Positions 2,357-32,700 of a stretch of 32,701 bases of DNA are shown one piece after another. Position 1 is the first letter of the stretch, and every line of letters starts with the position of its first letter. The stretch is from Candidatus Eiseniibacteriota bacterium. Its GTDB lineage: Bacteria > Eisenbacteria > RBG-16-71-46 > SZUA-252. The notes beneath the pieces were generated by a model. The model worked only from the letters and a program-made list of their open reading frames with translations. It did no database searches and had not been told where the DNA came from. The DNA is taken from contig JANMQV010000103.1 of NCBI GenBank assembly GCA_031370645.1, positions 1 to 32,701 on the forward strand, in the 5' to 3' direction. The translations under genes and the position numbers were made by a program.

Positions 2357-4588
2357 ATGATGAACGCCCCGATCGGAACCATCTACCTTCTCGTAGCCGG
2401 GCTCGTATTCCTCCTCGGCTTCGTGATCTTGCGCGAAGCGCCTCGCGAGCGTGCCAACCGCGCCACGGCGCTCATGCTCTTCTTCGCGGGCCTCGGCTCC
2501 GTGCTCGGCGCGATCGGCTTCATTCTCGAGGGCGTCGGCGCGGCGAAGCAAGGGACGAACGATCTTCTCCGCTCGTTCAACTATCTCTGGGAACTCTTTT
2601 TCCCGTCGCTGCTCTATTTCGCCTGCGTCTTCCCGTCGGAGAATCGCTTCTACCGGAAGATCCCGTTCGGCTCCTTCGTCATTTACGGCCCGCACGTCTT
2701 CCACCTCCTCTTCATGCTGCTTCTGCTGCAGGGGGCGCTCTGGGGGAGCCTCCTGGCGAACGTCTCGAAAGCCACGTCCGGGCGGGCCGTCATCGCGGCG
2801 CTTCGGCTTCCGGTAGAGCTCTCCATCCAGTTCCACCAGATCCTCTTCTCGCTCGTCAACCTCTTCTACATCGTCGCGGCCCTCACGATTCTCTTCCTCT
2901 CGTATCGCCGCGCCATGAACCCGAGGATCCGAAACCAACTGCGAGCCATCTTCATCGGGCTCGCCTCCTGCGCGAGCCTCTACGCGGTCGCCGTTCCGCT
3001 GCCCGTCCTCATCAATCATCCCTGGTCGGCGGTCGTCCGCTCCACGCTCATCATCAGCGCGCTGATTCTCGGCTCCGGCTCCATCGCCTATTCAATGGTC
3101 CGCTATCGCTTCCTCGACGCGAACCTGATCGCGCGGAAGTCGATTCTCTACGCTCTCACGTCGGGATTCCTTCTGATCGTCTACTCCACCGTGGTGCGGC
3201 AGCTCGATTCGCTTCTCGAGACGGTGCGCGGCTTCGACACGTCGATCTTCCAGACCGCCATGCTCCTTCTGGCGCTCATTCTCTTCCAGCCGATGTTCTC
3301 CTGGCTCGACGAGACGCTCGACCGATTGTTCCTCCGCGAGAAGGGCGACTACCGGTCGCTCCTCCGCCGCATGTCGAGCGAGATCCTCACGGTGCTCGAT
3401 CTCGAGAAATTGACCGAGAACGTCGTCTCAACACTCCGCGACGCGATTCCCGCGCGGACCACGGTCTTGCTCCTCACGCCCGAGCGGCGCGCCCCGATCG
3501 TGCGCGGTTTCGGCGGCGGCGTCGACGTGGCGCGCCTGGCGGCGATTCCGCGGCTCACGCTGGCTCAGCTGGTCGAGGGATCGGAACTGCTCCGGAAGGA
3601 GGAGATTCCGGCGCTCGCGGCGGAGCGGGGACTCGAGGCGGAGACCGCGGCGCTTCTAGAAACGCTACCGTTCGTGCTGATTCCGCTCCGCCACGGAGAG
3701 GATTTTCTCGGCGTGATCGCCCTCGGCCGAAAGATCACCGAGACGCGGTACAAGGCCGAGGAGTTGAGCCTCCTCCAAACGCTCGCCAACCAGACGAGCG
3801 TCGCGGTGAAGAACGCGCTTCTCTATCGCGAAAGTCTCGAAATGTCGATTCTCGAGGAGGAACTCGCGGTGGCGCGCCGCATTCAGCGGCAGTTTCTTCC
3901 CGCCTCGCTTCCCCAGACGCAGCGTTTCGGACTCGCCGCGTTGAATCTTCAGACGAAGCAGGTGGGCGGCGATTACTATGATCTGGTGGAACTCGGCGAC
4001 GGGCAATTCCTCGTGGTGATCGCCGATGTCGCCGGAAAGGGAATCCCGGCGGCGCTTCTCGCGTCGATGGTGCAAGCCTCCATTCGCACGCAGGCCGATT
4101 TGGCGAGTTCGGTCTGCCAGATCATGACGCGACTCAATCGTCTGGTGCACGACGCCACGCCCGACGATCGCTTCGCCACCTGCTTCCTTGCGCGGCTTGG
4201 CGGCGAGCGGATGTCGGTCCAGTTCGCGAACGCGGGACACAATTTTCCGATCGTGCTCCGGGCCGCCGGCGGATGGCGCTATCTCGAGGAGGGGGGCATT
4301 CCGCTCGGCATCATGCCGGGCTGGGAGTACGGCGAGACGGCCATGTCGCTCGCGCCGGGCGACTCGCTCTTGATGTACACGGATGGAATTACCGACGCGC
4401 GAAATCTCGAAGGCGAGGACTTCGGCGAGGAGCGGCTCATTCGCCTCGCGGAACGGCTTTCCCGTGAGCTCTCGGCGGACGAAATCGTGCAGGCGGTGGC
4501 CGACGAAGTCTCCCAATTCACGGCGGGAGCGGACCAGGCCGACGACATTACCTTGGTGGCCCTCAAGGCACTGGTGGTGATAGAGTAA
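2357..4588 (+). CDS. Membrane sensor PP2C/SpoIIE (RsbU-like) phosphatase with multi-TM N-terminus and GAF domain
   Basis: About 8-9 hydrophobic segments, then a GAF-like region (LIPLRHGEDFLGVIALG...LQTLANQ), then PP2C motifs GGDYYD, IADVAGKG, NAGH, YTDGITD and DDITLV. Confidence 0.9.
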   Translation: MMNAPIGTIYLLVAGLVFLLGFVILREAPRERANRATALMLFFAGLGSVLGAIGFILEGVGAAKQGTNDLLRSFNYLWELFFPSLLYFACVFPSENRFYRKIPFGSFVIYGPHVFHLLFMLLLLQGALWGSLLANVSKATSGRAVIAALRLPVELSIQFHQILFSLVNLFYIVAALTILFLSYRRAMNPRIRNQLRAIFIGLASCASLYAVAVPLPVLINHPWSAVVRSTLIISALILGSGSIAYSMVRYRFLDANLIARKSILYALTSGFLLIVYSTVVRQLDSLLETVRGFDTSIFQTAMLLLALILFQPMFSWLDETLDRLFLREKGDYRSLLRRMSSEILTVLDLEKLTENVVSTLRDAIPARTTVLLLTPERRAPIVRGFGGGVDVARLAAIPRLTLAQLVEGSELLRKEEIPALAAERGLEAETAALLETLPFVLIPLRHGEDFLGVIALGRKITETRYKAEELSLLQTLANQTSVAVKNALLYRESLEMSILEEELAVARRIQRQFLPASLPQTQRFGLAALNLQTKQVGGDYYDLVELGDGQFLVVIADVAGKGIPAALLASMVQASIRTQADLASSVCQIMTRLNRLVHDATPDDRFATCFLARLGGERMSVQFANAGHNFPIVLRAAGGWRYLEEGGIPLGIMPGWEYGETAMSLAPGDSLLMYTDGITDARNLEGEDFGEERLIRLAERLSRELSADEIVQAVADEVSQFTAGADQADDITLVALKALVVIE

Positions 4589-4592
4589 ACAG

Positions 4593-5051
4593 ATGGGCGG
4601 CGACCTGACTCCCCCGTCACCGAACGGGACCGACAACATCCGCCTGACGATCGGGAGCCGTCTTGAGCTCCTATCGATGGTGCATGCCCTCATCACTCAG
4701 ATTTCCCGCCAGTACGAGCTGAGCGAGGATTTCGAGAACGCCCTCCTCATTGCCGTGATCGAAGCCGGCACGAACGCCATCCAGCATGGGAACTGCTTCG
4801 CCGACGACAAGTGCGTGGAGTTCGAGTTCAAGGTCGGGGCGGGAGAGATCGTCATTGCCGTGGAGGATTTCGGGACGGGCTTCGATCCGAAGCAGGTGGA
4901 GAATCCAACCGATTCGTACGCGCTTTTGAACCCGCATGGGCGCGGGCTCTTCTTGATGCGGGAGTTGATGGACGACGTGAGTTTCGACGTCCGGGCCGAT
5001 CACGGAACCCGGGTGCTCTTGAAGAAGTCGCGCGTCAACGCGACGGCGTAA
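4593..5051 (+). CDS. RsbW/SpoIIAB-like anti-sigma factor Ser kinase (HATPase_c_2)
   Basis: N box EAGTNAIQHGN, G1 box EDFGTGFD, G2 box GRGLFLM; starts 4 nt after the phosphatase stop. Confidence 0.9.
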   Translation: MGGDLTPPSPNGTDNIRLTIGSRLELLSMVHALITQISRQYELSEDFENALLIAVIEAGTNAIQHGNCFADDKCVEFEFKVGAGEIVIAVEDFGTGFDPKQVENPTDSYALLNPHGRGLFLMRELMDDVSFDVRADHGTRVLLKKSRVNATA

Positions 5052-6216
5052 CGCTTTCCTCTCGCGGGCGCAAATGTTCCAGCGTCCGCCTCACCGCCGG
5101 GTAAATCTGCTCGAACGCCGCGATCACGCGCGGATCGAAGTGCGTGCCCGCGTTCCGCTTCAGTTCCGTTAGCGCCACCTGCTCGGCGAGCGCCTTTCGG
5201 TAGGGCCGGTCCGAGGTCATGGCGTCGAACGCGTCGGCCACCGCCATGATGCGCGCCTCGATTGGAATTCCCTCCCCCTTCAATCCGTCGGGATACCCCG
5301 TGCCGTCGAAGTGCTCGTGATGGGAGCGGACGCCGGGGAGGAGCGGGTGGAGGAGCGCAATCGGCCGCAGGATGCTTTCGCCGATCTGGGGATGGAGATC
5401 CATCTTCTCCTTCTCTCCCTGACTCAACCGTTCCCGCTTGTGCAAAATTCCCTCGTCCACGGCGATCTTCCCGATGTCGTGCACCAGGCAGGAGCGGTGG
5501 ATCACGTCGAGCGTCTCGGGCGGAAGTCCCAACTGCTTCCCGATCGCCTCGCTGTACGCCGCCACGCGGACCGAGTGGCCCTCCGTGTAGGGGTCCTTCG
5601 CTTCGATCGCCATCGTCAGGGAGACGATGACGCTCATGAAGAGATCCTCGAGTTTCGCCCTCTGCGCGTCTTCCAGAATCGCCACACCCGCCATCGTCCC
5701 GAGCGATCGAAGCCCCGCGGCATGTTCGGCGCCGAAACGGAACGGGGTCGCATGATTGAGGAGAAGCGCGCCGATCGCCTCGCCATGGGCGCGAATCGGG
5801 GCGAGCGCGCCGCCGTTCATTCCCGCGGCGAAGAGGAATTCGCGAGACCACGGGGTCTTCTGGCGGCGATGGAAGAGGACCACTTCGTCGCGGCGAAGGA
5901 GTTCGTCCAGGAGATCGCACGAAGGGCCGGTGAGCGTGAAGTCTCCCCACTCTTCAAGGACGCCCTGCACGTGCCGGAAGACGTACTCGCCGGGGCGCAC
6001 CCTCGTCAAGACGGCCACGCCGTCCGGATTCAGGAGCCGGTCGACGCCGCTCGCGACGTGGTGGAGCGAAGAGGTCCCCTCGTGGAACGGCTCGAGGGAG
6101 CGGGCCACGTCGTTCAGGCCGCGGATCAGCTCGAGGGCGCTCGGGAGTGACCGAGCGTCGGCGGGTGCGGCGGCGGATGTTGGTGCGTGCGCGGTGCGTT
6201 TCGTCTCGGTCGCCAT
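5035..6216 (-). CDS. GAF + HD-GYP domain cyclic-dinucleotide phosphodiesterase
   Basis: AKDPYTEGHSVRV, HDIGK, HHEHFDGTGYP, ADAFDAMTSDRPYR and GTHFDP motifs. ATG at 6216 has GAGG upstream and is preferred over TTG 6237. Confidence 0.9.
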   Translation of the reverse strand: MATETKRTAHAPTSAAAPADARSLPSALELIRGLNDVARSLEPFHEGTSSLHHVASGVDRLLNPDGVAVLTRVRPGEYVFRHVQGVLEEWGDFTLTGPSCDLLDELLRRDEVVLFHRRQKTPWSREFLFAAGMNGGALAPIRAHGEAIGALLLNHATPFRFGAEHAAGLRSLGTMAGVAILEDAQRAKLEDLFMSVIVSLTMAIEAKDPYTEGHSVRVAAYSEAIGKQLGLPPETLDVIHRSCLVHDIGKIAVDEGILHKRERLSQGEKEKMDLHPQIGESILRPIALLHPLLPGVRSHHEHFDGTGYPDGLKGEGIPIEARIMAVADAFDAMTSDRPYRKALAEQVALTELKRNAGTHFDPRVIAAFEQIYPAVRRTLEHLRPREESVTPSR

Positions 6217-6401
6217 CGCCTCGGTGTCCGGGGGCAAGAGCCCCCCTGCCTAGGGGTTACGCGTGAAGAAGGGAACGCGCTAGGGGTTCCCTTCCGTGTC
6301 CCCCCTGCTGTTGGAGGTTTCGGCAGGGACCGGTGCGATATTTAGCCGGAGTAGCGGGCGGGGCCGCGAAGGCGCGAAGGCGCGGCGCGCGGGCGGGAGT
6401 G

Positions 6402-23447: not shown

Positions 23448-23863
23448 TTCTCTTCCGACTTGGGCCAGATCACTCGCGAACTGACCAACATCGCCACGCC
23501 GATCAGGAACGGCATTAGCCCGATCGCCCAAATTCTCTTGTCCGGCTCGATCGACGTGAGCAGCACCATCATGCTGATCCCCACCGCCAGGAAAATGAGA
23601 CCCCCGACCATGAGGCCGTGCGCGCGCCGCCCACGCGAGCCCCAGCCGTGCCCGTTTTCGTGCGCGTCGGGGCTCGACATCGGCGGCAGCTTGGCCGGAT
23701 CGACGCCTCGCTCGATCATCGCGATCCGCTCCTTCCGTTCCAATTCCGCAAGACGCTGTTGACCCGTGATCCTCACGATCGCTACCGTGATTCCACCGAT
23801 AATCGCGATAATCGGGATCGCGAACGGCAGGGTCCCCCACATGAGCTGCTCAATATCGTGCAT
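23444..23863 (-). CDS. DUF6249-like small membrane protein
   Basis: TM helix, then ERIAMIERG, then two TM helices (GLIFLAVG; GLMPFLIG); GGAAAGG RBS before ATG 23863. Confidence 0.7.
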   Translation of the reverse strand: MHDIEQLMWGTLPFAIPIIAIIGGITVAIVRITGQQRLAELERKERIAMIERGVDPAKLPPMSSPDAHENGHGWGSRGRRAHGLMVGGLIFLAVGISMMVLLTSIEPDKRIWAIGLMPFLIGVAMLVSSRVIWPKSEEK

Positions 23864-23934
23864 GGCGTTTCCTTTCCAGGGTTTAGGTTGATGGCTCTTC
23901 GTGGTGCCGAGAGCCCCTTTCTTCTCCTTCGCCC

Positions 23935-23967
23935 CCTTGGACGGGAGGAGAGGGTGATCCGGTTTCA
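23935..23967 (-). promoter_or_regulatory. Putative ECF sigma promoter driving the DUF6249-lipoprotein operon
   Basis: Minus strand TGAAACCGG-N14-CCGTCCAAGG, mirrored by the same motif on the + strand. Confidence 0.7.
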
Positions 23968-23987
23968 AGCGCCGGAGCCCCGGATCC

Positions 23988-24020
23988 TGAAACCGGCGCT
24001 CCCCCTCGCCCCGTCCAAGG
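23988..24020 (+). promoter_or_regulatory. Putative autoregulatory ECF sigma promoter
   Basis: TGAAACCGG-N14-CCGTCCAAGG directly upstream of the ECF gene. Confidence 0.7.
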
Positions 24021-24025
24021 AGCAG

Positions 24026-24661
24026 ATGATGGAGGCCCCTCGGGGGCGCGGTGCCGACCGGCCCCTCCTTCTGGATGAGCCGGAGCTCCTGGCGCGTTGT
24101 CGCGCCGGGGAGACGGCGGCGTTCGCCGTGCTGGTCGATCGTTACCGCGATCGAGCGTACGGATTGGCGTTCCGACTGATCCGCTCCGCCCCCGACGCTG
24201 AAGAGGTGGCGCAGGATGCCTTCGTCAGCGCGTGGCGGTCGCTCGGCGCCTTCCGTGGCGATGCGACCTTCTCCACCTGGCTCTATCGAATCGTCTGGAG
24301 GAAGGCCCTCGACCGGGTCGAACTCCTTCGGAATCGCGGACGGCGCGAAGTGGCCGTGGACGATCCGGCGCGCGTGGAGGCCGAGGCGGCCGGGAACGCG
24401 CCGATGGCCGACGAAGGAGGGGCTTCGGCCAGGGACGTGAATAAGTTGGAGCGACTCCTCGGGACGCTTTCAGAACTCTCGCGGGCGGTGGTGACGCTCT
24501 ACTACTATGAAGACCGCTCGGTGAGCGACGTCGCGGCGGCGCTCGGGATCCCCGAGGGGACGGTGAAGACGCATCTCTTCCGGTCGCGCGTGGCGCTCCG
24601 CGAGGGCTGGCTCCGCGACGAGCGATCGACAAGCGAGGAACGGGAACATGATCCGGTGTGA
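24026..24661 (+). CDS. ECF RNA polymerase sigma-70 factor
   Basis: Region 2 DAEEVAQDAF and FSTWLYRI; region 4 ALGIPEGTVKTHLFR. Confidence 0.93.
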   Translation: MMEAPRGRGADRPLLLDEPELLARCRAGETAAFAVLVDRYRDRAYGLAFRLIRSAPDAEEVAQDAFVSAWRSLGAFRGDATFSTWLYRIVWRKALDRVELLRNRGRREVAVDDPARVEAEAAGNAPMADEGGASARDVNKLERLLGTLSELSRAVVTLYYYEDRSVSDVAAALGIPEGTVKTHLFRSRVALREGWLRDERSTSEEREHDPV

Positions 24662-25226
24662 CGAACTGAATCGCTGGCTCGATGAGGGAATGCCGGCCGA
24701 TGGCGCCGCCGGAGCGCGGGCTCACGCCGCGAACTGCCCCTCCTGCGCGGAGGCGCTCGGCGCCTTCGAAGCGATCGATTGCGCCCTCGCGCTCCCCCCG
24801 CGCACGCTCCCCGATGGCGCGGCGTTCACGGCCCGGGTGATGGAGCAAGTGCGAACGGTCGTCCCCATCGCGGCGCCCCCCGTGACCGGAAAGCGCGACC
24901 CGTGGTGGATCACGATCTTTTCCGAGCCCGGTTTTGCCGTTGCCGCGGCCGCGGCGGTCGTGTTGATCCTCACCCCCGCCGCGGTTCGATTCGACACGAC
25001 CCGAAGCGTGGCGCTCCCACTCTCGGTCGCCATGCAAACCCTCGGAGCGTCGGTCGGCCTGACCCTCGCCGGCTGGTTTGACCCCGCGGCCCTCGCCGCG
25101 CGCCTCACGCCTCTCTCGCGAATCTGTATCCTGATCGGCTTCGCGCCGCTCCTCGTCTGGGCCGGCCTCTGGATGTTCGGCGCCGTGGAGCGTCTGGTCC
25201 GAAATGTTCCCGCTCGCCGCGGGTGA
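24648..25226 (+). CDS. Zinc-binding (ZAS) membrane anti-sigma factor
   Basis: C-x-HxxxCxxC pattern (CDE...HAANCPSC) plus C-terminal TM helices; overlaps the sigma stop. Confidence 0.8.
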   Translation: MIRCDELNRWLDEGMPADGAAGARAHAANCPSCAEALGAFEAIDCALALPPRTLPDGAAFTARVMEQVRTVVPIAAPPVTGKRDPWWITIFSEPGFAVAAAAAVVLILTPAAVRFDTTRSVALPLSVAMQTLGASVGLTLAGWFDPAALAARLTPLSRICILIGFAPLLVWAGLWMFGAVERLVRNVPARRG

Positions 25227-26377
25227 AGCGCCTCCTCGTCGGAATCGTCGCGCTGGCGCTCGTCGTCGCGGCGCTCCTCGCGGGCTTAGGGTGGTACGTT
25301 TCGGGCCGAATTCAACGCGAAGCTCTCCTCGCTTCCTACGATAAGGCTCCCCCGCTCTACGACGACGCGACGGTCACGGCCGTCGACTCATCCCAAATCA
25401 CCCTCCGCATGCTCCGTGATGAACACGACCGGCTGGCGCGCGAAGGGGCGTGGGGGCTCTTCTGGAATGAGGGAGGCGGCCGCGTCGGCGCCATCCTGAA
25501 GCGTGAGGGCTCGAGCGTGGTGCGCGCCTTCACGCCGATCGACGGCTTCCCCGCCCCTGGTGACAGCGTCGATCTCCGCCTCGAGGCCTATCAGGGCGAC
25601 CCCCTCCGAGCCCGCGACATCCCCTTCGAAAACGTCGTCGTCGGAACCGAACTCGGCCCCGCGCCCGCCTGGAGAATCGGCGGCACGCGCTCCACGTGGG
25701 TCGTGTTCGTGCATGGGAAGGGCGCTTCGCGGCGGCAGGCCCTCCGCGCGCTCGGCGTGGTCCACGCGCTCGGGTTTCCCGCGCTCGTCATCACCTACCG
25801 GAATGACGACGGCGCGCCACCGAGTCCCGATGGGCGCTATCATTACGGTCTGACCGAGTGGCGCGACGTCGAGTCGGCGGTGCGCTACGCCATCGCGAAC
25901 GGCGCGTTGAACGTGATTCTGTGCGGCACGAGCATGGGGGGTGGCATCGTCGTCGCGTTCCTGGAGCACTCATCTCTCGCGTCGCGCGTGCCGCGTGCGG
26001 TGCTCGACTCGCCGATGCTCGACTTCGGCGAGACAATCGACTGGGGCGTGGAGCACGCAACCCTTCCCGGAACGGCGATCCCGATGCCCCGCATCGCCGG
26101 CGTCGTCGGGAAGCAATTCGCCGCCTGGCGTTTCGGCGTCGATTGGGCGGCACTCGACCTGAGGCGCCATGCTGATGCGATTCGAACGCCACTCCTCGTC
26201 TTCCACGGCGGCGAGGATGACGTCGTTCCGATCGCCACGAGTCGCGAGCTGGCGGCGCGCTTTCCCGATCGCGTGACGTTCCTGACGTTCCCGGGCGCGA
26301 GGCACGCGGAAGGGTGGAACGTCGATTCGCTCCGCTTCAACACCGCGCTCCGTGAGTTCCTGGGGAGAGTTCGATGA
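25223..26377 (+). CDS. Membrane-anchored/exported alpha/beta hydrolase
   Basis: N-terminal hydrophobic helix; VHGKG, GTSMGG, HGGEDDVVP and ARHAEGWN catalytic triad motifs. Confidence 0.88.
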   Translation: MKRLLVGIVALALVVAALLAGLGWYVSGRIQREALLASYDKAPPLYDDATVTAVDSSQITLRMLRDEHDRLAREGAWGLFWNEGGGRVGAILKREGSSVVRAFTPIDGFPAPGDSVDLRLEAYQGDPLRARDIPFENVVVGTELGPAPAWRIGGTRSTWVVFVHGKGASRRQALRALGVVHALGFPALVITYRNDDGAPPSPDGRYHYGLTEWRDVESAVRYAIANGALNVILCGTSMGGGIVVAFLEHSSLASRVPRAVLDSPMLDFGETIDWGVEHATLPGTAIPMPRIAGVVGKQFAAWRFGVDWAALDLRRHADAIRTPLLVFHGGEDDVVPIATSRELAARFPDRVTFLTFPGARHAEGWNVDSLRFNTALREFLGRVR

Positions 26378-28752
26378 GCCCCGCGCGATCGGTGACGAGA
26401 AGTGGGGTCGGAGGCGTGCCCGGTACGGGTCTCGCGGTCGCCACAGCGGTCGCCATGATCGCCTTCCAAGTGGCCGCCAAAGCGACGCGCGACACGCTTT
26501 TCCTGACCTCGTTCCCCGTCTCCTACCTCCCCGCCATGACCGTTGCATCGGCGATCGTCTCGATCACCATGGTCATCGTGGCGGCCCGCGCGTTGGCCCG
26601 CTTCGGCCCCGAGTTCGTGATCCCGATCGGATTCGCCGGAAGTGCGGTGCTCTTGCTGGTCGAATGGACCGTGGTCCGGACCTGGCCGGGACCGATCGCG
26701 ATCGTGGTCTACCTTCACTATGGCGGGCTCGGTGCGCTCCTCATCTCCGGCTTTTGGGCGTTCCTGAATGAGCGCTTCGATCCGCGCTCGGCGAAGCGCG
26801 CGCTGGGGCGCATCGCTGCGGGGGGAACCGTCGGGGGACTGGTCGGCGGCGTCCTGGCCGACCGCGTCGGTTCGGCCTTCAACGTCTCGATGATGCTCCC
26901 GATTCTCGCGACGATTCACGCGCTCTGCGCGGTACTCGTCTTCCGTCTCCGCGAATCGTCGGGCTCGGCGAACGTACCGCCAAAATCGAAACGCGTCGTG
27001 GCGGCCGAGGAACCGGAACGGCCCGCCGTGGCGCCCCCTCCTTCCGCCGGCGAAAGCGCGGCCGCTGTCCCGACGACCTCTGTCTTCGGATTCGGCATCC
27101 TGCGTCGGTCGCCCTATCTCCGCACGCTCGTCGCGCTCGTTGTGCTGGTCACGATCAGCGAGGGGTTGGTCGACTGGATCCTCAAAGCCCGGGCCGCGAC
27201 CGCCATGGTGCGACCGCAGGACCTCCTTCGTTTCTTCGGCGCCTTCTACACCGGCGTCTCGGTTCTGACGGTCGTCGTGCAAACGTTGCTGAGCCGCGTG
27301 GCACTCGAGCGTCTCGGGCTCGCACGGTCGGTCGCCACGCTCCCGGCCGCGGTTGGGCTCGGGAGTTTCGGCGCGCTCGCGTGGCCGGGGCTCGGTAGCG
27401 CGATCGCGCTTCGGGCAACTGAATCGGTCGTTAGCAATTCGCTCTATCGCGCGGGATACGAAGTGCTCTTCACGCCGCTTCCCCCGAGGGAGAAGCGGGG
27501 CGTGAAGACACTCGTCGACGTGGGGGCCGCGAGGGCGGGCGACTTCCTCGGCGCCGCCGCGATTCAGATCGTGATCCTGGCGACCGACCTGGGGCGCGCC
27601 CCCGGCGCGATCTTGATTCTCGTCGCCACCTCCTGCGCGGCGACACTCTTCGTCGCGAGTCGTCTCCATGCGGGTTACGTCAAGGCGTTGGAGCGCGGGC
27701 TCGTCTCGCGCGCCGTTCATCTCGATTTCTCGGAAGTTCACGACGCGACGACGCGATCGATGCTCTTGCAGCGGATGGCGCCGCTCGCGCTGAGTCAGGT
27801 GCTCGATCGTTCGCAACTCACGGGGGTTTCGGGAGTCGTCGGACGGAGCGACGCGACGGGAGCGTCGGGCACGACGAGCACGAAGCCGGCTCGCGACGCG
27901 GGGAGGGCCGCTGCCGCCGCCCTCGATCCCGTGGCGCGACGCGACGCCTCGCTCCTGTCGGGACGCCCCTCGGAGGTGCGCGCGGCGCTTCGACAGGGTC
28001 CGCTCCCTCCGGAACTCGTCCCCCGCGTCATCACGCTCCTGGCGTGGGATGAAGCCGCGCGGGAAGCGATCGAGGCGCTCCGCGCGGTCGGTGACGACGC
28101 GATTCCGGCGCTCTCGGGAGCGCTATCCGATTCGAACAGCGACTTCGCCATCCGCCGCCGCGTGCCGCTCGTTCTCGGGACGGTGCCGTCGGCCTCCGCA
28201 ATCGAGGGTCTCCTGGGCGGGTTGGGCGACCAGCGCTTCGAGGTTCGTTATCGCTGCGGGCGCGCGCTCCACCATCTCGTCACGACGTACTCGAAACTTG
28301 GCGTTCCGCCGGATCGGGTCTTCGAGGCGGTGCTGCGTGAGGTGGGAGCGGAGCGGCGGGTCTGGGAGGGGCAGCGGCTGCTCGATCAACTCGACGACGA
28401 GTCGTGGACGCCGGCATTCGACGAGGCGCTTCGCGCGCGCGCGAACCGAAGCCTGGAGCACGTCTTCACGCTGCTCGCGCTAACGCTACCGCGTCAGCCG
28501 CTTCAGATCGCCTATCGCGGACTTCACACCGACGACCCGCTCCTTCGCGGGACAGCCCTCGAGTATCTCGAGACGACGCTTCCTCCGGAGATTCGAAAGC
28601 AGCTCTGGCCATTCCTGGAAGACACGCGAGGGAAGCGGCCGGAGACGCGAAGCACCGACGAAGTGTTGGCGGATCTCCTCCGATCGAACCAGTCGATCGC
28701 GATCCAGTTGGACTCCCTCCGCGCTCGCGAGCCGCGGGAGGGGGACTCCTAG
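26374..28752 (+). CDS. Npt/TLC-like (ATP/ADP translocase-related MFS) transporter fused to HEAT-like repeats
   Basis: About 12 TM helices with KATRDTLFL, FWAFLNERFDPRSAKR..G.IAAGG and YEVLFTPLP.REKR motifs; helical repeats (AIEALRAVG...IRRRVPLVLG...VRYRCGRAL) at the C-terminus. Confidence 0.72.
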   Translation: MSPARSVTRSGVGGVPGTGLAVATAVAMIAFQVAAKATRDTLFLTSFPVSYLPAMTVASAIVSITMVIVAARALARFGPEFVIPIGFAGSAVLLLVEWTVVRTWPGPIAIVVYLHYGGLGALLISGFWAFLNERFDPRSAKRALGRIAAGGTVGGLVGGVLADRVGSAFNVSMMLPILATIHALCAVLVFRLRESSGSANVPPKSKRVVAAEEPERPAVAPPPSAGESAAAVPTTSVFGFGILRRSPYLRTLVALVVLVTISEGLVDWILKARAATAMVRPQDLLRFFGAFYTGVSVLTVVVQTLLSRVALERLGLARSVATLPAAVGLGSFGALAWPGLGSAIALRATESVVSNSLYRAGYEVLFTPLPPREKRGVKTLVDVGAARAGDFLGAAAIQIVILATDLGRAPGAILILVATSCAATLFVASRLHAGYVKALERGLVSRAVHLDFSEVHDATTRSMLLQRMAPLALSQVLDRSQLTGVSGVVGRSDATGASGTTSTKPARDAGRAAAAALDPVARRDASLLSGRPSEVRAALRQGPLPPELVPRVITLLAWDEAAREAIEALRAVGDDAIPALSGALSDSNSDFAIRRRVPLVLGTVPSASAIEGLLGGLGDQRFEVRYRCGRALHHLVTTYSKLGVPPDRVFEAVLREVGAERRVWEGQRLLDQLDDESWTPAFDEALRARANRSLEHVFTLLALTLPRQPLQIAYRGLHTDDPLLRGTALEYLETTLPPEIRKQLWPFLEDTRGKRPETRSTDEVLADLLRSNQSIAIQLDSLRAREPREGDS

Positions 28753-28821: not shown

Positions 28822-30567
28822 TCAGCGATCGACGGCGACCACGCGCCCGCCGGCGCGCGCCACGTAGAAACGGACCGGCCGGCTCCATCCCGCTCCGCGA
28901 TCGACCGACGCCTCGATCGCCAGGAACGGCCGGTTCGCTCCCCCTGCCGCGCCGCCCGGCGGATTCGCCGCTAGTCCCGCGAGATCCGCCGACGTTTCCT
29001 TTGTTTCACTCCAATCGCTCCAGGCGCCCAGACTCCGCTCGGCGTCGCAGGCGGCGAGCCGAACGCGGTAGCGCGGCGTCGTCCCGGGATAGAGTCCCCG
29101 CTCGGCGCCGAGATCGTGGAACCGGAGCGCGCCTTCCTTCCAGGTGAAGAAATCGAGCGGCGGCACGCGATCGAACCAGATGCGCGCCACCTTGTCGCGC
29201 CGCGCTTCGAGCATGTCGACGATGTACTTCGCGGCGTTCGGATTCCGATACTTCCCTTCGGCCACCGCCGCCTCCAACTGGTCACGCCGGAACGCCGAGA
29301 TGATCTTCGCCGCCCAGTAGCCGTCTCGCTCGGTCATGTTCGCGAAGGCCGCGTTCGGCTGGAGCGACTTCCACTCCATCGGATCGAACTGCACCGCCTC
29401 GAAGTAGCCGATTTCCGGCATCCCCTCCGGAAGCGTGAGCCGCCGCCAGTCGTCCTCGTGGATGCCGAGCCCCAAGAGCCGACCACCGACCGCGGAGAAA
29501 TCGAAGCCGTACTCCATGTTCGCAAGCGGGAATGGTCCGACTCCCCCCGTCCCGAGCGTGGCCGTGAAATCGAACAGATAGTGCCGCACGTACCGCTTGT
29601 CGCCCTCGGTGATGTAGCTGTCCTGCGTGTTGCCTTGCTTCACGTCGAAGTGAGCGAGCCAGGCGCAGATCATTCGGAGTCCGCGGAGCTCGCGGCGGTT
29701 TTCGTGCTTGATGCGGTCGAACGGATCGCTGTGGCGGCGGCTCTTCCAGTCGAAGGGACCGAGCAGTTCGCCGGGGAGGTATTTGCTCGCGATGCCGCGC
29801 CACGTTCCATCGGGATCGCGCGGCGAGCGCGCAAGAATCGTGTCGAGGTCCGCCTCGGTCATCGGCCGCTTCTTGCCGTGCTTTCCCGTGATCTGGACCC
29901 CCTCCTTCAAGACGAGATCCTCGCGGCGGAAATTGATGACGAAGTCCTCCGAGACGTTGTACCCGGCCGCGTAGAGAAGCCGCCCCGCGATGACGCCGGC
30001 CGCGGTGGTCGAACCGGGACAGCAATCCGGATCGAACTTCACGACGTACGTATCGCCGCGCGCGTCCTTCACGTTGAATCCCGAGGTCACGCCCTGCGTC
30101 TTCGCGCGGACCACCTTCCAGGGAGCGCTCCGATCGGGACCGTCGACCGTCAACACCCCGCGCGCCACCTCCTCGGGAGTCATCGGGTAGAGCCCGATTC
30201 GATTCGTGAACCAGGTGGAGGAGAGCGCCTCGTCGAGTTCGTTCACGTCGACGGCGGGGCGGGCGACGTCTCCGCCGAAGATCCCTCCCACGTGCCTAGC
30301 GAGTCGCACGGGATTGAAAAGCCGGCCAACGGGGCGAACGATCGTCTCGTCGAACTCGTCCTTGCGAAGGCTCGGGTCTCGTTTCTTCGGCTTCTCGATA
30401 GTGCCGCGATCGGCGGCGTCCCATCGCACCGGCTCGTCGCGAAGCGGCTCCCGCGCCGCCGCGACGGGGACTAGAGCGGGCACAAGAAGTCCCCACGCGG
30501 TGAATCCGGCGAGGAAGAGGGCCGCGAGGGCGGCGCGCCTAACGAGCGGGAATCGGCTCGCGCCCAT
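28822..30567 (-). CDS. Exported hypothetical protein with atypical protein-kinase-like motifs
   Basis: Signal peptide; KTQGVTSGF (Gly-loop-like), YVVKFD (beta3 Lys), HFDVKQGN (DxKxxN catalytic loop) and LFDFTATLG (DFG-like). Confidence 0.65.
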   Translation of the reverse strand: MGASRFPLVRRAALAALFLAGFTAWGLLVPALVPVAAAREPLRDEPVRWDAADRGTIEKPKKRDPSLRKDEFDETIVRPVGRLFNPVRLARHVGGIFGGDVARPAVDVNELDEALSSTWFTNRIGLYPMTPEEVARGVLTVDGPDRSAPWKVVRAKTQGVTSGFNVKDARGDTYVVKFDPDCCPGSTTAAGVIAGRLLYAAGYNVSEDFVINFRREDLVLKEGVQITGKHGKKRPMTEADLDTILARSPRDPDGTWRGIASKYLPGELLGPFDWKSRRHSDPFDRIKHENRRELRGLRMICAWLAHFDVKQGNTQDSYITEGDKRYVRHYLFDFTATLGTGGVGPFPLANMEYGFDFSAVGGRLLGLGIHEDDWRRLTLPEGMPEIGYFEAVQFDPMEWKSLQPNAAFANMTERDGYWAAKIISAFRRDQLEAAVAEGKYRNPNAAKYIVDMLEARRDKVARIWFDRVPPLDFFTWKEGALRFHDLGAERGLYPGTTPRYRVRLAACDAERSLGAWSDWSETKETSADLAGLAANPPGGAAGGANRPFLAIEASVDRGAGWSRPVRFYVARAGGRVVAVDR

Positions 30568-32023
30568 AGAGCATTCCGCCTTTCACGAATTGGAAAACCT
30601 GGTCGGCCCGAAGGCGAATGATCGAGGTCTCCTCGCTCTTCGCGTACTCGATCCGAAGCGCGAGGCCGTGGCCCGATTCGATTCGAAGGCCGCCGCCGTA
30701 CGAGAGCTTCATTTCACGGAGCGCGACTTGGCGGGCGTCGCCGAACACCTGTCCCACATCGGTCAGGAGGTAGGCATCGACTCCCGGGCCGAAGGGCCGC
30801 TGATGCGCCCAGATGGGCCATCGGTATTCGGCCGTCGCGATGGCGATGCCGCGGTCGCGCCAGCGGAAATCGTCGTATCCGCGGAGGAGATCGGGATCGT
30901 CGTTCGTGTTGAGTCGCGCGAGCGGAACGGGATCGCTTCCCGCGTTATCGATCCAGGAGGCGACACCGCGGAGGGCCAGGATGCGGAGCGGCCTCCAGAG
31001 GGTGAAGAAGTGCTGCAATTCGCCGCGGTACGTCCAAAAACGGACGTTGTCTCGATCGACGCTCTTGAAATAAGTCGCGCGAAGCCGCTGAATGCCGCCG
31101 CGGCCCGGACGGTTCTGGAGCCTCGCGCTCTCGTGCCTCCACTGGCCACCCACCGTGAAGCCGTAGGAGTGCCGGCCGTAGCCGGGCAGGGACGGCGCGG
31201 CGAAGGTGTCTTCCGCCGGCGGGTCGTTGCCCTTCCCGTTCCCCGGCGCGCCCGTCGCGACGGTGGAATATTCGAGATTCGCTTCCAAGTGCGAGGCGCC
31301 GCCGAAGGGACGGCGGAGATTCAGGCCCGCCCAACCGGTTTCCTGGTGAAGATACGACTCGTCCTCTTCGCGCGACTTGGGGCCGAGCCCGAAGTAGCGG
31401 ACATTCGGACGCTGCCGATAGCCCGCGCCGATCTCGAGAAACCCGCCACGATCCGAATGAAAGCGCGCGGCGATCCCGAGGTGGTCATCGTGGTGCGTGG
31501 TCGTGGAGGCGCGGGCCCGGAGCGTATTCCCCGTTCCGAAAAACTTCGTGTGCTCGGCGATGAGTCCGCCGCCGAGCCCCGAGAGACCGCCGAATTGGAA
31601 GTCGACCAAGAAGCCGAACGGTCCCTGCCGAGGTCCTAGCAGGCTTGCGGCCCGCTCCAGTACCCTATGCTCGTCCATGTATCCGATTCCCGCTCCGGTC
31701 CCTTTGGAGACGAGCACGATCGGGTAGGTGACGACGCGGTAGGGTGCGAGGAGCACTTGCTCCCACACCGGCTTGGGTGGTTCGGCGAGCGCGGCCGCCA
31801 CCGTGTCGGGGCGGGCCGCGATCGGTCCCCAATAACTCTCAACCGTCTGGGCGCACGCAGCGGCGCCCACCAGGAAGGACCCCAGGATGAGGATGGCGAA
31901 TCCGAGCGGGAAGCGCGCGTCGAGGCGTGGCCCGCTCCTGTGTATGTGGCGTAGTGGGCGTAGTGGGCGTATGGGGCGTATCGCGCGTTTCGCGGCGCTC
32001 GGTCTGCTTCTGGCGTTGGCCAT
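30539..32023 (-). CDS. Omp85 (BamA/TamA) family outer-membrane beta-barrel without evident POTRA domains; start uncertain
   Basis: Signal peptide ...GAAACA-Q; alternating beta-strands; lid loop LRGYDDFRWRD, AEYRWPI, LTDVGQVF and SYGGGLR. Confidence 0.8.
   Translation of the reverse strand: MANARSRPSAAKRAIRPIRPLRPLRHIHRSGPRLDARFPLGFAILILGSFLVGAAACAQTVESYWGPIAARPDTVAAALAEPPKPVWEQVLLAPYRVVTYPIVLVSKGTGAGIGYMDEHRVLERAASLLGPRQGPFGFLVDFQFGGLSGLGGGLIAEHTKFFGTGNTLRARASTTTHHDDHLGIAARFHSDRGGFLEIGAGYRQRPNVRYFGLGPKSREEDESYLHQETGWAGLNLRRPFGGASHLEANLEYSTVATGAPGNGKGNDPPAEDTFAAPSLPGYGRHSYGFTVGGQWRHESARLQNRPGRGGIQRLRATYFKSVDRDNVRFWTYRGELQHFFTLWRPLRILALRGVASWIDNAGSDPVPLARLNTNDDPDLLRGYDDFRWRDRGIAIATAEYRWPIWAHQRPFGPGVDAYLLTDVGQVFGDARQVALREMKLSYGGGLRIESGHGLALRIEYAKSEETSIIRLRADQVFQFVKGGMLYGREPIPAR
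31942..31986. repeat. Degenerate 9-bp tandem repeat (5 units)
   Basis: GTATGTGGC GTAGTGGGC GTAGTGGGC GTATGGGGC GTATCGCGC. Confidence 0.75.
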
Positions 32024-32462
32024 GGCGTCGGTGGCGGCGTCCCCGTTCATGTGGCCGCGCGGCTCGCGGCAGGCGGTGGCGCCGCTGGCGCAGCCCACGC
32101 TCGAATCGAAACTGGCGGCGTTCACGCCGGGGCCGGAGGCGGGCTATACGTTCGCCGCGTTCGGGGACCAGCGCGCCTTGGCCGGCGGCGAATGGGAATC
32201 GATGATGACTTCGATCGACTCGCTCTCGCAGCTGGATCCAAGAATGCTCTTCCTGCTCGACACCGGCGACATCGTGGAGAGCGGTTTCTACCGAGACCAG
32301 TTTCGAACGCTCGCCAGCATCCTGACCAGGGCTCCGAGCCTACCGTACCTGGTGGGGGTGGGCAATCACGAGCTCGACAACGATCGGCCCGGGCCCTCCC
32401 GGCTCCATACGGCGGCATTCCTGAAGCCGGCCGGCGCGAGCATCAACATTCTCATCGGGTGA
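31971..32462 (+). pseudogene. Exported calcineurin-like metallophosphoesterase, C-terminally truncated
   Basis: Signal peptide; motifs I-III (FGDQR, TGDIVE, GNHE) present; the ORF stops about 30 aa after GNHE and lacks the later His and GHxH motifs. Confidence 0.7.
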
Positions 32463-32469
32463 GTTCCTC

Positions 32470-32700
32470 CTATGTTTCTTCGTCCCGCGCCACGCGCACG
32501 GTGGCGAGCGGAGTTTCCTGGCGAAGCGGCGACATCGGCGCCGCGGCCGGCAGATGGAGGTCCCACCACTCCTCGGCCCGCGCGGCGTTCCACGGTTCGT
32601 GGAGCGGAATCGAGTCGAGGCGCCGCGCCAACTCCACCGTGCTCGCCGGGCGATCCTCGGGCTTCTTCGCGAGGCAGGCGAGGATCACCCGATCGAGTTC
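32470..32700 (-). CDS. C-terminal end of a Hanks-type Ser/Thr protein kinase (runs off the window)
   Basis: ELDRVILACLAKKPEDRP matches kinase subdomain XI. Confidence 0.8.
   Translation of the reverse strand, partial: ELDRVILACLAKKPEDRPASTVELARRLDSIPLHEPWNAARAEEWWDLHLPAAAPMSPLRQETPLATVRVARDEET

Follow-up and report, generated by a model that had tools for sequence, protein, structure and literature searches.

An exported kinase-like protein family encoded beside POTRA-less Omp85 barrels and associated with putative nucleotide carriers, as seen from a locus of a Candidatus Eiseniibacteriota bacterium

The gene and its locus

The stretch of DNA analysed here, referred to as the window, comprises positions 1 to 32,701 of contig JANMQV010000103.1 (assembly GCA_031370645.1, Candidatus Eiseniibacteriota bacterium) and has a G+C content of 61-70%. 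Its subject is gene P0001 (Table 1), which encodes an exported protein with a kinase-like fold and is a member of a new and very large family of the protein-kinase-like (PKL) superfamily that has no Pfam model. In its structure model, a kinase-like core (approximately residues 136-468) is preceded by a signal peptide and an N-terminal extension and followed by a tail resembling an FN3 domain. Immediately upstream, in the same orientation, is the gene for an Omp85 barrel, whose stop codon overlaps the start of the kinase gene by 29 nt. On the other side, a gene for a carrier of the NTT/TLC type fused to HEAT repeats is convergent with the kinase gene across a gap of 70 nt. A search for RNA sequencing runs gave none.

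Table 1. Coordinates of the kinase-like gene, its domains and motifs, and the associated genes in the window
Feature	Position	Strand	Basis or remark
Exported kinase-like protein gene (P0001)	28822..30567	-	Open reading frame (ORF) and translation, 581 aa
N-terminal export signal, residues 1-38	30454..30567	-	Basic n-region with RR, hydrophobic core, AAA-RE; read by eye
N-terminal extension, residues 39-135	30163..30453	-	Conserved motif ending DEVPDSSWFTNR (S117, W119, R123)
Protein-kinase-like catalytic core, residues 136-468	29164..30162	-	VIA and Foldseek matches
Gly-containing nucleotide loop AKTQGVTSGF, residues 155-164	30076..30105	-	Between strands 150-156 and 163-167
K177, beta3 lysine	30037..30039	-	Ends strand 173-178
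Vicinal cysteine pair C182-C183	30019..30024	-	Beta3-alphaC loop
G191, site of the alphaC acidic residue	29995..29997	-	Family E 89, D 26, G 12 of 135
Catalytic loop D308-V-K310-Q-G-N313	29629..29646 (D308, 29644-29646)	-	After helix 297-304
Metal-binding DFG-type motif D333-F-T	29563..29571 (D333, 29569-29571)	-	After hairpin 314-331
C-terminal FN3-like beta-sandwich, residues 469-581	28825..29163	-	VIA matches
POTRA-less (noNterm-type) Omp85 barrel gene	30539..32125	-	PF01103 3.5e-15; upstream of kinase gene
NTT/TLC-type carrier fused to HEAT repeats	26374..28752	+	PF03219 30.8 bits (cut-off 21), MFS_1, HEAT_2
Shortened exported metallophosphoesterase, 191 aa	31887..32462	+	GD and GNHE motifs; divergent from Omp85 gene

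Predicted fold and comparison with known kinases

An alignment of 135 sequences, with a mean column identity of 29%, was assembled from P0001 together with 5 of its close relatives and 129 full-length family representatives; only sequences of 500 to 650 aa that were not fragments were admitted. The AlphaFold2 model obtained with this alignment had a pLDDT of 93.7 and a pTM of 0.92, and residues 7-28, within the export signal, formed a low-confidence helix. A Foldseek search of the PDB gave 13 matches at E <= 1e-3, those listed being Helicobacter pylori CtkA (1.6e-4), Fam20C (3e-4), actin-fragmin kinase (4e-4) and Fam20A, with probabilities of 1.00 for CtkA and Fam20C; PI4KIIa and Rio2 came next in the ranking. 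In VIA, a structure aligner that is independent of Foldseek, CtkA (3akj) was again first with a Z score of 14.2, followed by Fam20C (13.7 and 12.9), Hydra Fam20 (12.9), PI4KIIa (12.7), CotH (12.2), actin-fragmin kinase (11.5), HipA (11.0), HipT (10.8) and MavQ (10.8). The matched spans in the model were residues 149-472 for CtkA, 136-468 for PI4KIIa, 145-468 for CotH and 47-468 for Fam20C, and FN3 and cytokine-receptor domains matched residues 466-576 (Z 8.2-9.8).

The top matches of both searches are all kinase-like, and the model has the bilobal fold of solved members of the PKL superfamily. The first-pass annotation, which was made from the sequence letters, had suggested an atypical kinase of the HipA, CotH or PI3K kind with an export signal. 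This suggestion is supported by the fold searches, in which HipA, CotH and PI4KIIa are among the top matches and CtkA and Fam20C precede them, and also by the conservation of the catalytic residues and the weak HipA-like Pfam matches that recur in the family, both described below.

The bilobal core is shared with CtkA (3akj/3akk; 222 residues aligned, rmsd 3.6) and with actin-fragmin kinase (1cja) at sequence identities of 10-13%, and P0001 differs from both in its additional N-terminal extension and FN3-like tail. CtkA is a secreted kinase and so likewise acts outside the cytoplasm; to our knowledge, neither an Omp85 partner nor linkage to a carrier is a feature of CtkA. The alignments with Fam20C, Fam20A and Fam20B (4kqa/4kqb, 5yh0) reach into the N-terminal extension of P0001 (residues 46/47-468). 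The Fam20 kinases act in a non-cytosolic compartment that needs imported ATP, and an ATP/ADP exchanger might, by analogy, serve P0001 in the same way; however, P0001 is bacterial and associated with an outer-membrane barrel, and with identities of 9-10% the similarity is one of fold only. The same D-x4-N spacing of the catalytic loop is found in HipA-like kinases, PI4KIIa and MavQ, but HipA kinases act as toxins in the cytoplasm and have antitoxins as partners, whereas P0001 leaves the cytoplasm and has an Omp85 barrel as its partner. The spore-coat kinase CotH of Bacillus (5jda, 235 residues aligned) acts on an extracytoplasmic structure. It differs in that no Pfam CotH match was found on P0001, and in that CotH belongs to the other envelope type and occurs without an Omp85 or carrier context.

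Family size and sequence-level searches

The kinship with kinases was seen by fold comparison only, because searches of the PDB sequences with phmmer and with a profile of the 135 sequences gave no match at E <= 10. No Pfam family matched P0001 at E <= 1 or at E <= 10, the HipA-like profiles (PF07804/PF20613) and the Fam20 profile (PF06702) included, and NCBIfam gave nothing real; a match to XerD (0.013) was rejected as chance. The family itself is large. At E <= 1e-3, an exhaustive search gave 2,666 cluster representatives, of which 1,768 remained at 1e-10 and 685 at 1e-30; a word-indexed search, in which 8,000 candidates were scored, gave 1,520 relatives at E <= 1e-3. Among the matches listed, none of 120 relatives carried a Pfam domain, and they were named 'hypothetical protein' and came from metagenome-assembled genomes (MAGs) of Candidatus Eisenbacteria and Gemmatimonadota.

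When 85 members were compared with Pfam at E <= 10, the sole recurrent matches were HipA_C (13/85) and HipA_2 (12/85), all other families being matched by at most 2 members each; PF06702 was not in the 25 families listed of the 30 matched. The HipA-like matches were below threshold, with best E values of 0.012 (HipA_C/PF07804) and 7.9e-4 (HipA_2/PF20613), which at the level of sequence profiles indicates remote kinship and not membership. Among clusters from a protein language model, the nearest ones with a common Pfam family were Fam20C (0.80), HipA_2, PI3_PI4_kinase and Sca4/LepB_N, all at 0.79-0.80, values that serve as a lead only. The literature searched contained no account of such a family or of a link between kinase, Omp85 and carrier, the supplementary tables and trees of PMC11358297 and PMC5381601 lying outside that search.

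Catalytic motifs, conservation and export signals

The residues expected of a PKL member, namely the beta3 lysine, the catalytic aspartate and asparagine and the metal-binding aspartate, are present in order in P0001 and conserved in the family. K177, D308, N313 and D333 are kept in 131, 128, 124 and 130 of the 135 sequences, respectively (92-97% each), and all four occur together in 118. As the first-pass annotation had proposed, the motifs follow the canonical order, and the codons of K177, D308 and D333, when recomputed, fall exactly where it had placed them; the invariance that it had expected of these positions among homologs is reflected in the counts. Because the motifs are conserved in an alignment with so low a mean column identity, they are not chance resemblances. 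In the model, their order along the secondary structure elements is that of the kinase-like fold, with position 191 lying within helix 186-201.

Conservation is also high in the nucleotide loop (K156 in 121, G159 in 128 and G163 in 118 sequences), at D179 and H329 (132 each) and at F334 (118). Position 310 of the catalytic loop is occupied by R in 58 sequences and K in 55, and position 335 by G in 96, giving the family consensus DFG. Further residues that are invariant or nearly so (D281, D284, H288, R291, R292, R295, D415, W418 and R456) may, judging from their conservation, belong to a substrate site. In the N-terminal extension, S117, W119 and R123 are kept in 126, 129 and 134 sequences, respectively.

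A signal peptide or lipobox was present at the N-terminus of all relatives inspected, and the strict lipobox pattern was found in 54 of the 135. In P0001 and its close relatives, the n-region of the signal peptide contains a conserved Arg-Arg pair (window positions 30535-30567, - strand; residues 1-11), which could direct export of the folded enzyme through the Tat pathway, whereas other family members carry lipoprotein signals instead of the Arg-Arg n-region.

The Omp85 partner

The true start of the Omp85 gene is probably downstream of its GTG codon, and the mature end of the protein probably lies near residue 93. The model of this protein is a barrel of 16 strands without POTRA domains, preceded by a long N-terminal helix (120-152), and BamA and TamA barrels match it at 1e-13. 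It thus belongs to the same class as the noNterm Omp85 proteins, which are described, in the parts of the sources available, without an established function (PMC4104836, PMC11358297).

The genomic context was compared in the best 80 of 582 confirmed related stretches, with one genome per species and 13 closer sequences as query; these loci share 35-76% identity and come from many phyla, and genes were counted in them by tblastn. In every one of them (80/80), the gene immediately upstream of the kinase gene, in the same orientation, encodes an Omp85 homolog. A predicted complex of Omp85 residues 93-528 with kinase residues 39-581 scored 0.74, and a control with unrelated chain 1 scored 0.62, so that the prediction speaks neither for nor against direct binding. 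An exported kinase fold with its own Omp85 barrel is a clean and unexplained gene pair in all 80 loci, even if the mechanism proposed below fails.

One explanation for so constant a pairing is that the barrel is a dedicated translocator in the style of two-partner secretion and that the protein is a surface or secreted kinase with external substrates, as reported for CtkA, the carriers then serving some other purpose. The invariable upstream position of the Omp85 gene and the overlap of the two genes are in keeping with such an arrangement, as are the best structural match, the secreted H. pylori kinase CtkA, and the FN3-like C-terminal domain, a fold common in surface proteins. TpsB translocators, however, recognise their cargo by POTRA domains, of which they have two and which the partner model lacks, and no TPS domain or other Pfam family was found on the kinase, so that neither protein has the marks of a TpsB/TpsA pair. 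In favour of secretion, noNterm Omp85 genes of Leptospira that reside beside lipoprotein or adhesin genes were discussed as possible secretion pairs; the word 'kinase' occurs 0 times in that report (PMC11358297). Against it, secretion to the surface would leave the linkage to carriers unexplained (74/82 kinase-positive genomes and 50/68 loci, see the next section), and extracellular ATP would be scarce. On this balance, a surface or secreted kinase is unlikely.

Putative nucleotide carriers and phosphoesterase

A gene of the TLC/NTT type was found in 50 of the 68 loci with at least 1.5 kb of sequence downstream of the kinase gene, and was adjacent on the same strand in 33 of the 68; where the kinase gene had 9 kb or more of sequence to either side, it was present in 29/36 loci. 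At the level of genomes, a phylum sample of 151 contained 74 with both the kinase and a PF03219 carrier, 8 with the kinase only, 5 with the carrier only and 64 with neither. This sample includes one unpublished genome that has both (G015), without which the numbers are 73, 8, 5 and 64 of 150. PF03219 matches were found in 0/14 control genomes. In the genome from which the window originates, PF03219 genes, Omp85 homologs of this type and kinase paralogs are equal in number, with three of each. A single-domain carrier gene follows the kinase ortholog in the closest relatives (L006-L008) and in three genomes of the same genus (G101, G078 and G034). The copy studied here has lost this adjacent single-domain carrier.

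Nucleotide transporters of the NTT type and NTT-HEAT fusions, to which the neighbour in the window belongs, exist in free-living bacteria and have unknown roles (PMC5381601). In the available parts of PMC4104836 and PMC5381601, no link is drawn between noNterm Omp85 proteins and NTT-HEAT fusions or between either and a kinase, and 'export' and 'periplasm' have 0 occurrences in the latter. A carrier count of 65/80 from ORF clustering was dropped, because the cluster had absorbed alternative-frame ORFs inside the kinase gene, a product of the high G+C content. Two antisense ORFs of 452 and 643 aa, rich in Arg, Gly and Asp, overlie the kinase gene (29116-30474, + strand) and the carrier gene (25885-27816, - strand) in the window and likewise look like shadow ORFs of high-GC DNA, not genes. 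Upstream of the NTT-HEAT gene and on the same strand are genes for a sigma-70-type factor (23618-24661, +) and an alpha/beta-hydrolase (25223-26377, +). Since the latter overlaps the carrier start by 4 nt on the same strand, hydrolase and carrier are probably co-transcribed.

The metallophosphoesterase gene that diverges from the Omp85 gene ends just past the GD and GNHE motifs, and its product matched no Pfam family at E <= 0.01; the syntenic gene in L006, compared by tblastn, encodes 411 aa with a Pfam Metallophos domain, and the gene in the window looks like a truncated remnant. Of 63 loci that could be evaluated, 16 encode an exported metallophosphoesterase at any position, and in 11 its gene is divergently upstream; these phosphoesterases start with a signal peptide or lipobox. 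A second, fuller module is present on contig C48 of the same genome (L004:2347-9031, - strand), an operon in which a kinase paralog is followed, in this order, by a lipoprotein of the Metallophos family, a single-domain TLC carrier (PF03219, 52.4 bits) and an outer-membrane protein of the OmpA family that has thrombospondin type 3 repeats; directly upstream of this paralog, at the contig end, is an Omp85 fragment.

The combination of carrier and phosphoesterase might instead reflect nucleotide scavenging, in which carriers import external nucleotides, as classical NTTs do, the phosphoesterase trims them and the kinase-fold protein acts on nucleotides in the periplasm, by binding or by conversion, and not on an envelope component. 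The NTTs that have been characterised import nucleotides or act as exchangers in organelles (PMC5381601, part available). The linked Metallophos proteins have weak matches to cyclic-nucleotide phosphodiesterases (7.7e-8 and 1.4e-6, below cut-off), and kinase-like folds do include small-molecule kinases, amicoumacin and aminopropanol kinases being among the lower Foldseek matches. A phosphotransferase in the periplasm would nevertheless still require a phosphate donor there, and the closest folds are those of protein or lipid kinases, not nucleoside kinases. The Metallophos gene, moreover, is present in only 16/63 loci, and pairing with Omp85 in 80/80 would be unexpected for a soluble salvage enzyme. 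Scavenging thus appears quite improbable.

Proposed mechanism and the divergence of this copy

The reading that we prefer, with a probability of roughly 55%, is that the protein is an envelope phosphotransferase of the PKL superfamily that is supplied with ATP by the carrier. What we infer is the chemistry that would join the observed fold, catalytic residues, export signals, Omp85 pairing and carrier association. The carrier would release ATP from the cytoplasm into the periplasm and take up ADP in exchange; the kinase-like protein, located at or under the Omp85 barrel, would use this ATP to phosphorylate a substrate in the envelope, which may be a protein, a lipid or a glycan; and the exported phosphoesterase would reverse the modification. 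The system could in this way be a bacterial counterpart of the Fam20-type kinases of the secretory pathway, which are fed by a lumenal ATP/ADP exchanger. Extended more tentatively to many diderm phyla, among them Eisenbacteria, Gemmatimonadota, Krumholzibacteriota, Fibrobacterota, Ignavibacteria, Acidobacteriota and Zixibacteria, the proposal is one of envelope phosphorylation in which NTT carriers move ATP out and ADP in, a kinase resembling Fam20 and CtkA is docked on a POTRA-less Omp85 barrel, and a phosphoesterase provides reversal.

Several observations weigh against an envelope phosphotransferase fed by the carrier. Because of its small size, ATP could escape through general porins. The assignment of the carrier is modest: the NTT-HEAT gene has a PF03219 score of 30.8 bits against a cut-off of 21, and its TIGR00769 score of 23.5 bits (23.5-54.6 for the carriers scored) is far below the cut-off of 387. 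No carrier gene was seen in 18/68 evaluable loci or in 7/36 long loci, and 8/82 kinase-positive genomes have no PF03219 match. Kinship among the sampled genomes inflates the co-occurrence statistics, so that the Fisher p-value is overstated. The window itself has no adjacent single-domain carrier, only the convergent NTT-HEAT gene. According to the part of PMC5381601 available, the characterised NTTs all come from reduced-genome parasites, which import nucleotides, or from endosymbiotic organelles.

The remaining points against the preferred reading concern the sequence of P0001. E or D occupies position 191 in 115/135 sequences, and P0001 has G191 in place of this alphaC acidic residue. Its metal-binding motif is DFT, compared with DFG in 96/135, and it has S276, S280 and F283 where the family has G (125/135), D (115/135) and N (122/135). 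The absence of an alphaC glutamate, which the first-pass annotation had pointed out, is thus real in this protein and does not extend to the family. The cysteine pair after the lysine that it had also remarked upon is likewise genuine and is confined to a small subclade of 4 among the 135 sequences, each sharing 56% identity or more with P0001; the redox-sensitive site suggested for it is speculative. Of the 12 sequences with Gly-191, 6 are P0001 and the close relatives added by hand. The other two kinase paralogs that this genome encodes share 38% and 37% identity with P0001 by tblastn; both have D at position 191, and one has Q at position 313. On these sequence grounds, and with its adjacent single-domain carrier lost, P0001 is a divergent paralog that may have altered positioning of the lysine or reduced activity.

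A stronger form of this idea is that the family is catalytic and that this copy is a pseudokinase or scaffold, that is, a nucleotide-binding or structural partner of the Omp85 barrel. It would account for the substitutions just listed (G191, DFT, and the three residues at positions that are 85-93% conserved) and for a further one, G185 in place of a Glu found in 91/135 sequences. It would also fit the locus, in which the adjacent single-domain carrier is missing although present in G101, G078 and G034 of the same genus and the neighbouring phosphoesterase is cut to 191 aa compared with 411 aa in L006, and it would fit a genome that has two more canonical paralogs. Against it, K177, D308, K310, N313 and D333 are retained in P0001 and are invariant across the clade with Gly-191, down to 43-45% identity, which argues for continued selection on catalysis. 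G191 itself is conserved in that clade and is not a product of random decay, and active kinases without the canonical Lys-Glu pair exist. An inactive copy is accordingly rather unlikely.

Other genes in the window and at related loci

An ORF that is open-ended at the window edge (32470-32700, - strand) is the C-terminal tail of a gene for a Hanks-type Ser/Thr kinase and is 69% identical over 74 aa (E 3e-31) to the tail of the corresponding gene in L006. A Hanks-type kinase was considered as a part of the module and rejected, because it occurs in 24/80 loci, mostly of close relatives, which indicates synteny within the lineage and not a core component. NhaA, found between kinase and carrier in 6/80 loci, is regarded as incidental. 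In 9/80 loci, the next gene after the carrier, in the same orientation, encodes approximately 958 aa, a count from clustering that is partly polluted by shadow ORFs; in a Candidatus Krumholzibacteriia MAG (L050:13307-16183, + strand), its product is CheA-like, with Hpt, HATPase_c and CheW domains. Elsewhere in the window are genes for two signalling proteins with GAF domains, a SpoIIE/PP2C-type phosphatase (2357-4588, +) and an HD_5 protein resembling HD-GYP (5035-6237, -).

Implications

If the proposed mechanism is correct, a major kinase-like family, represented by the clusters counted above and lacking a Pfam model, would operate outside the cytoplasm in many little-studied phyla. It would provide the first function for the NTT and NTT-HEAT proteins of free-living bacteria and for POTRA-less Omp85 barrels. 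It would also overturn the working rule that the periplasm is free of ATP-driven chemistry, and a defined module of three genes would make periplasmic ATP testable. The system would then represent a bacterial parallel to the secretory-pathway kinases of eukaryotes.

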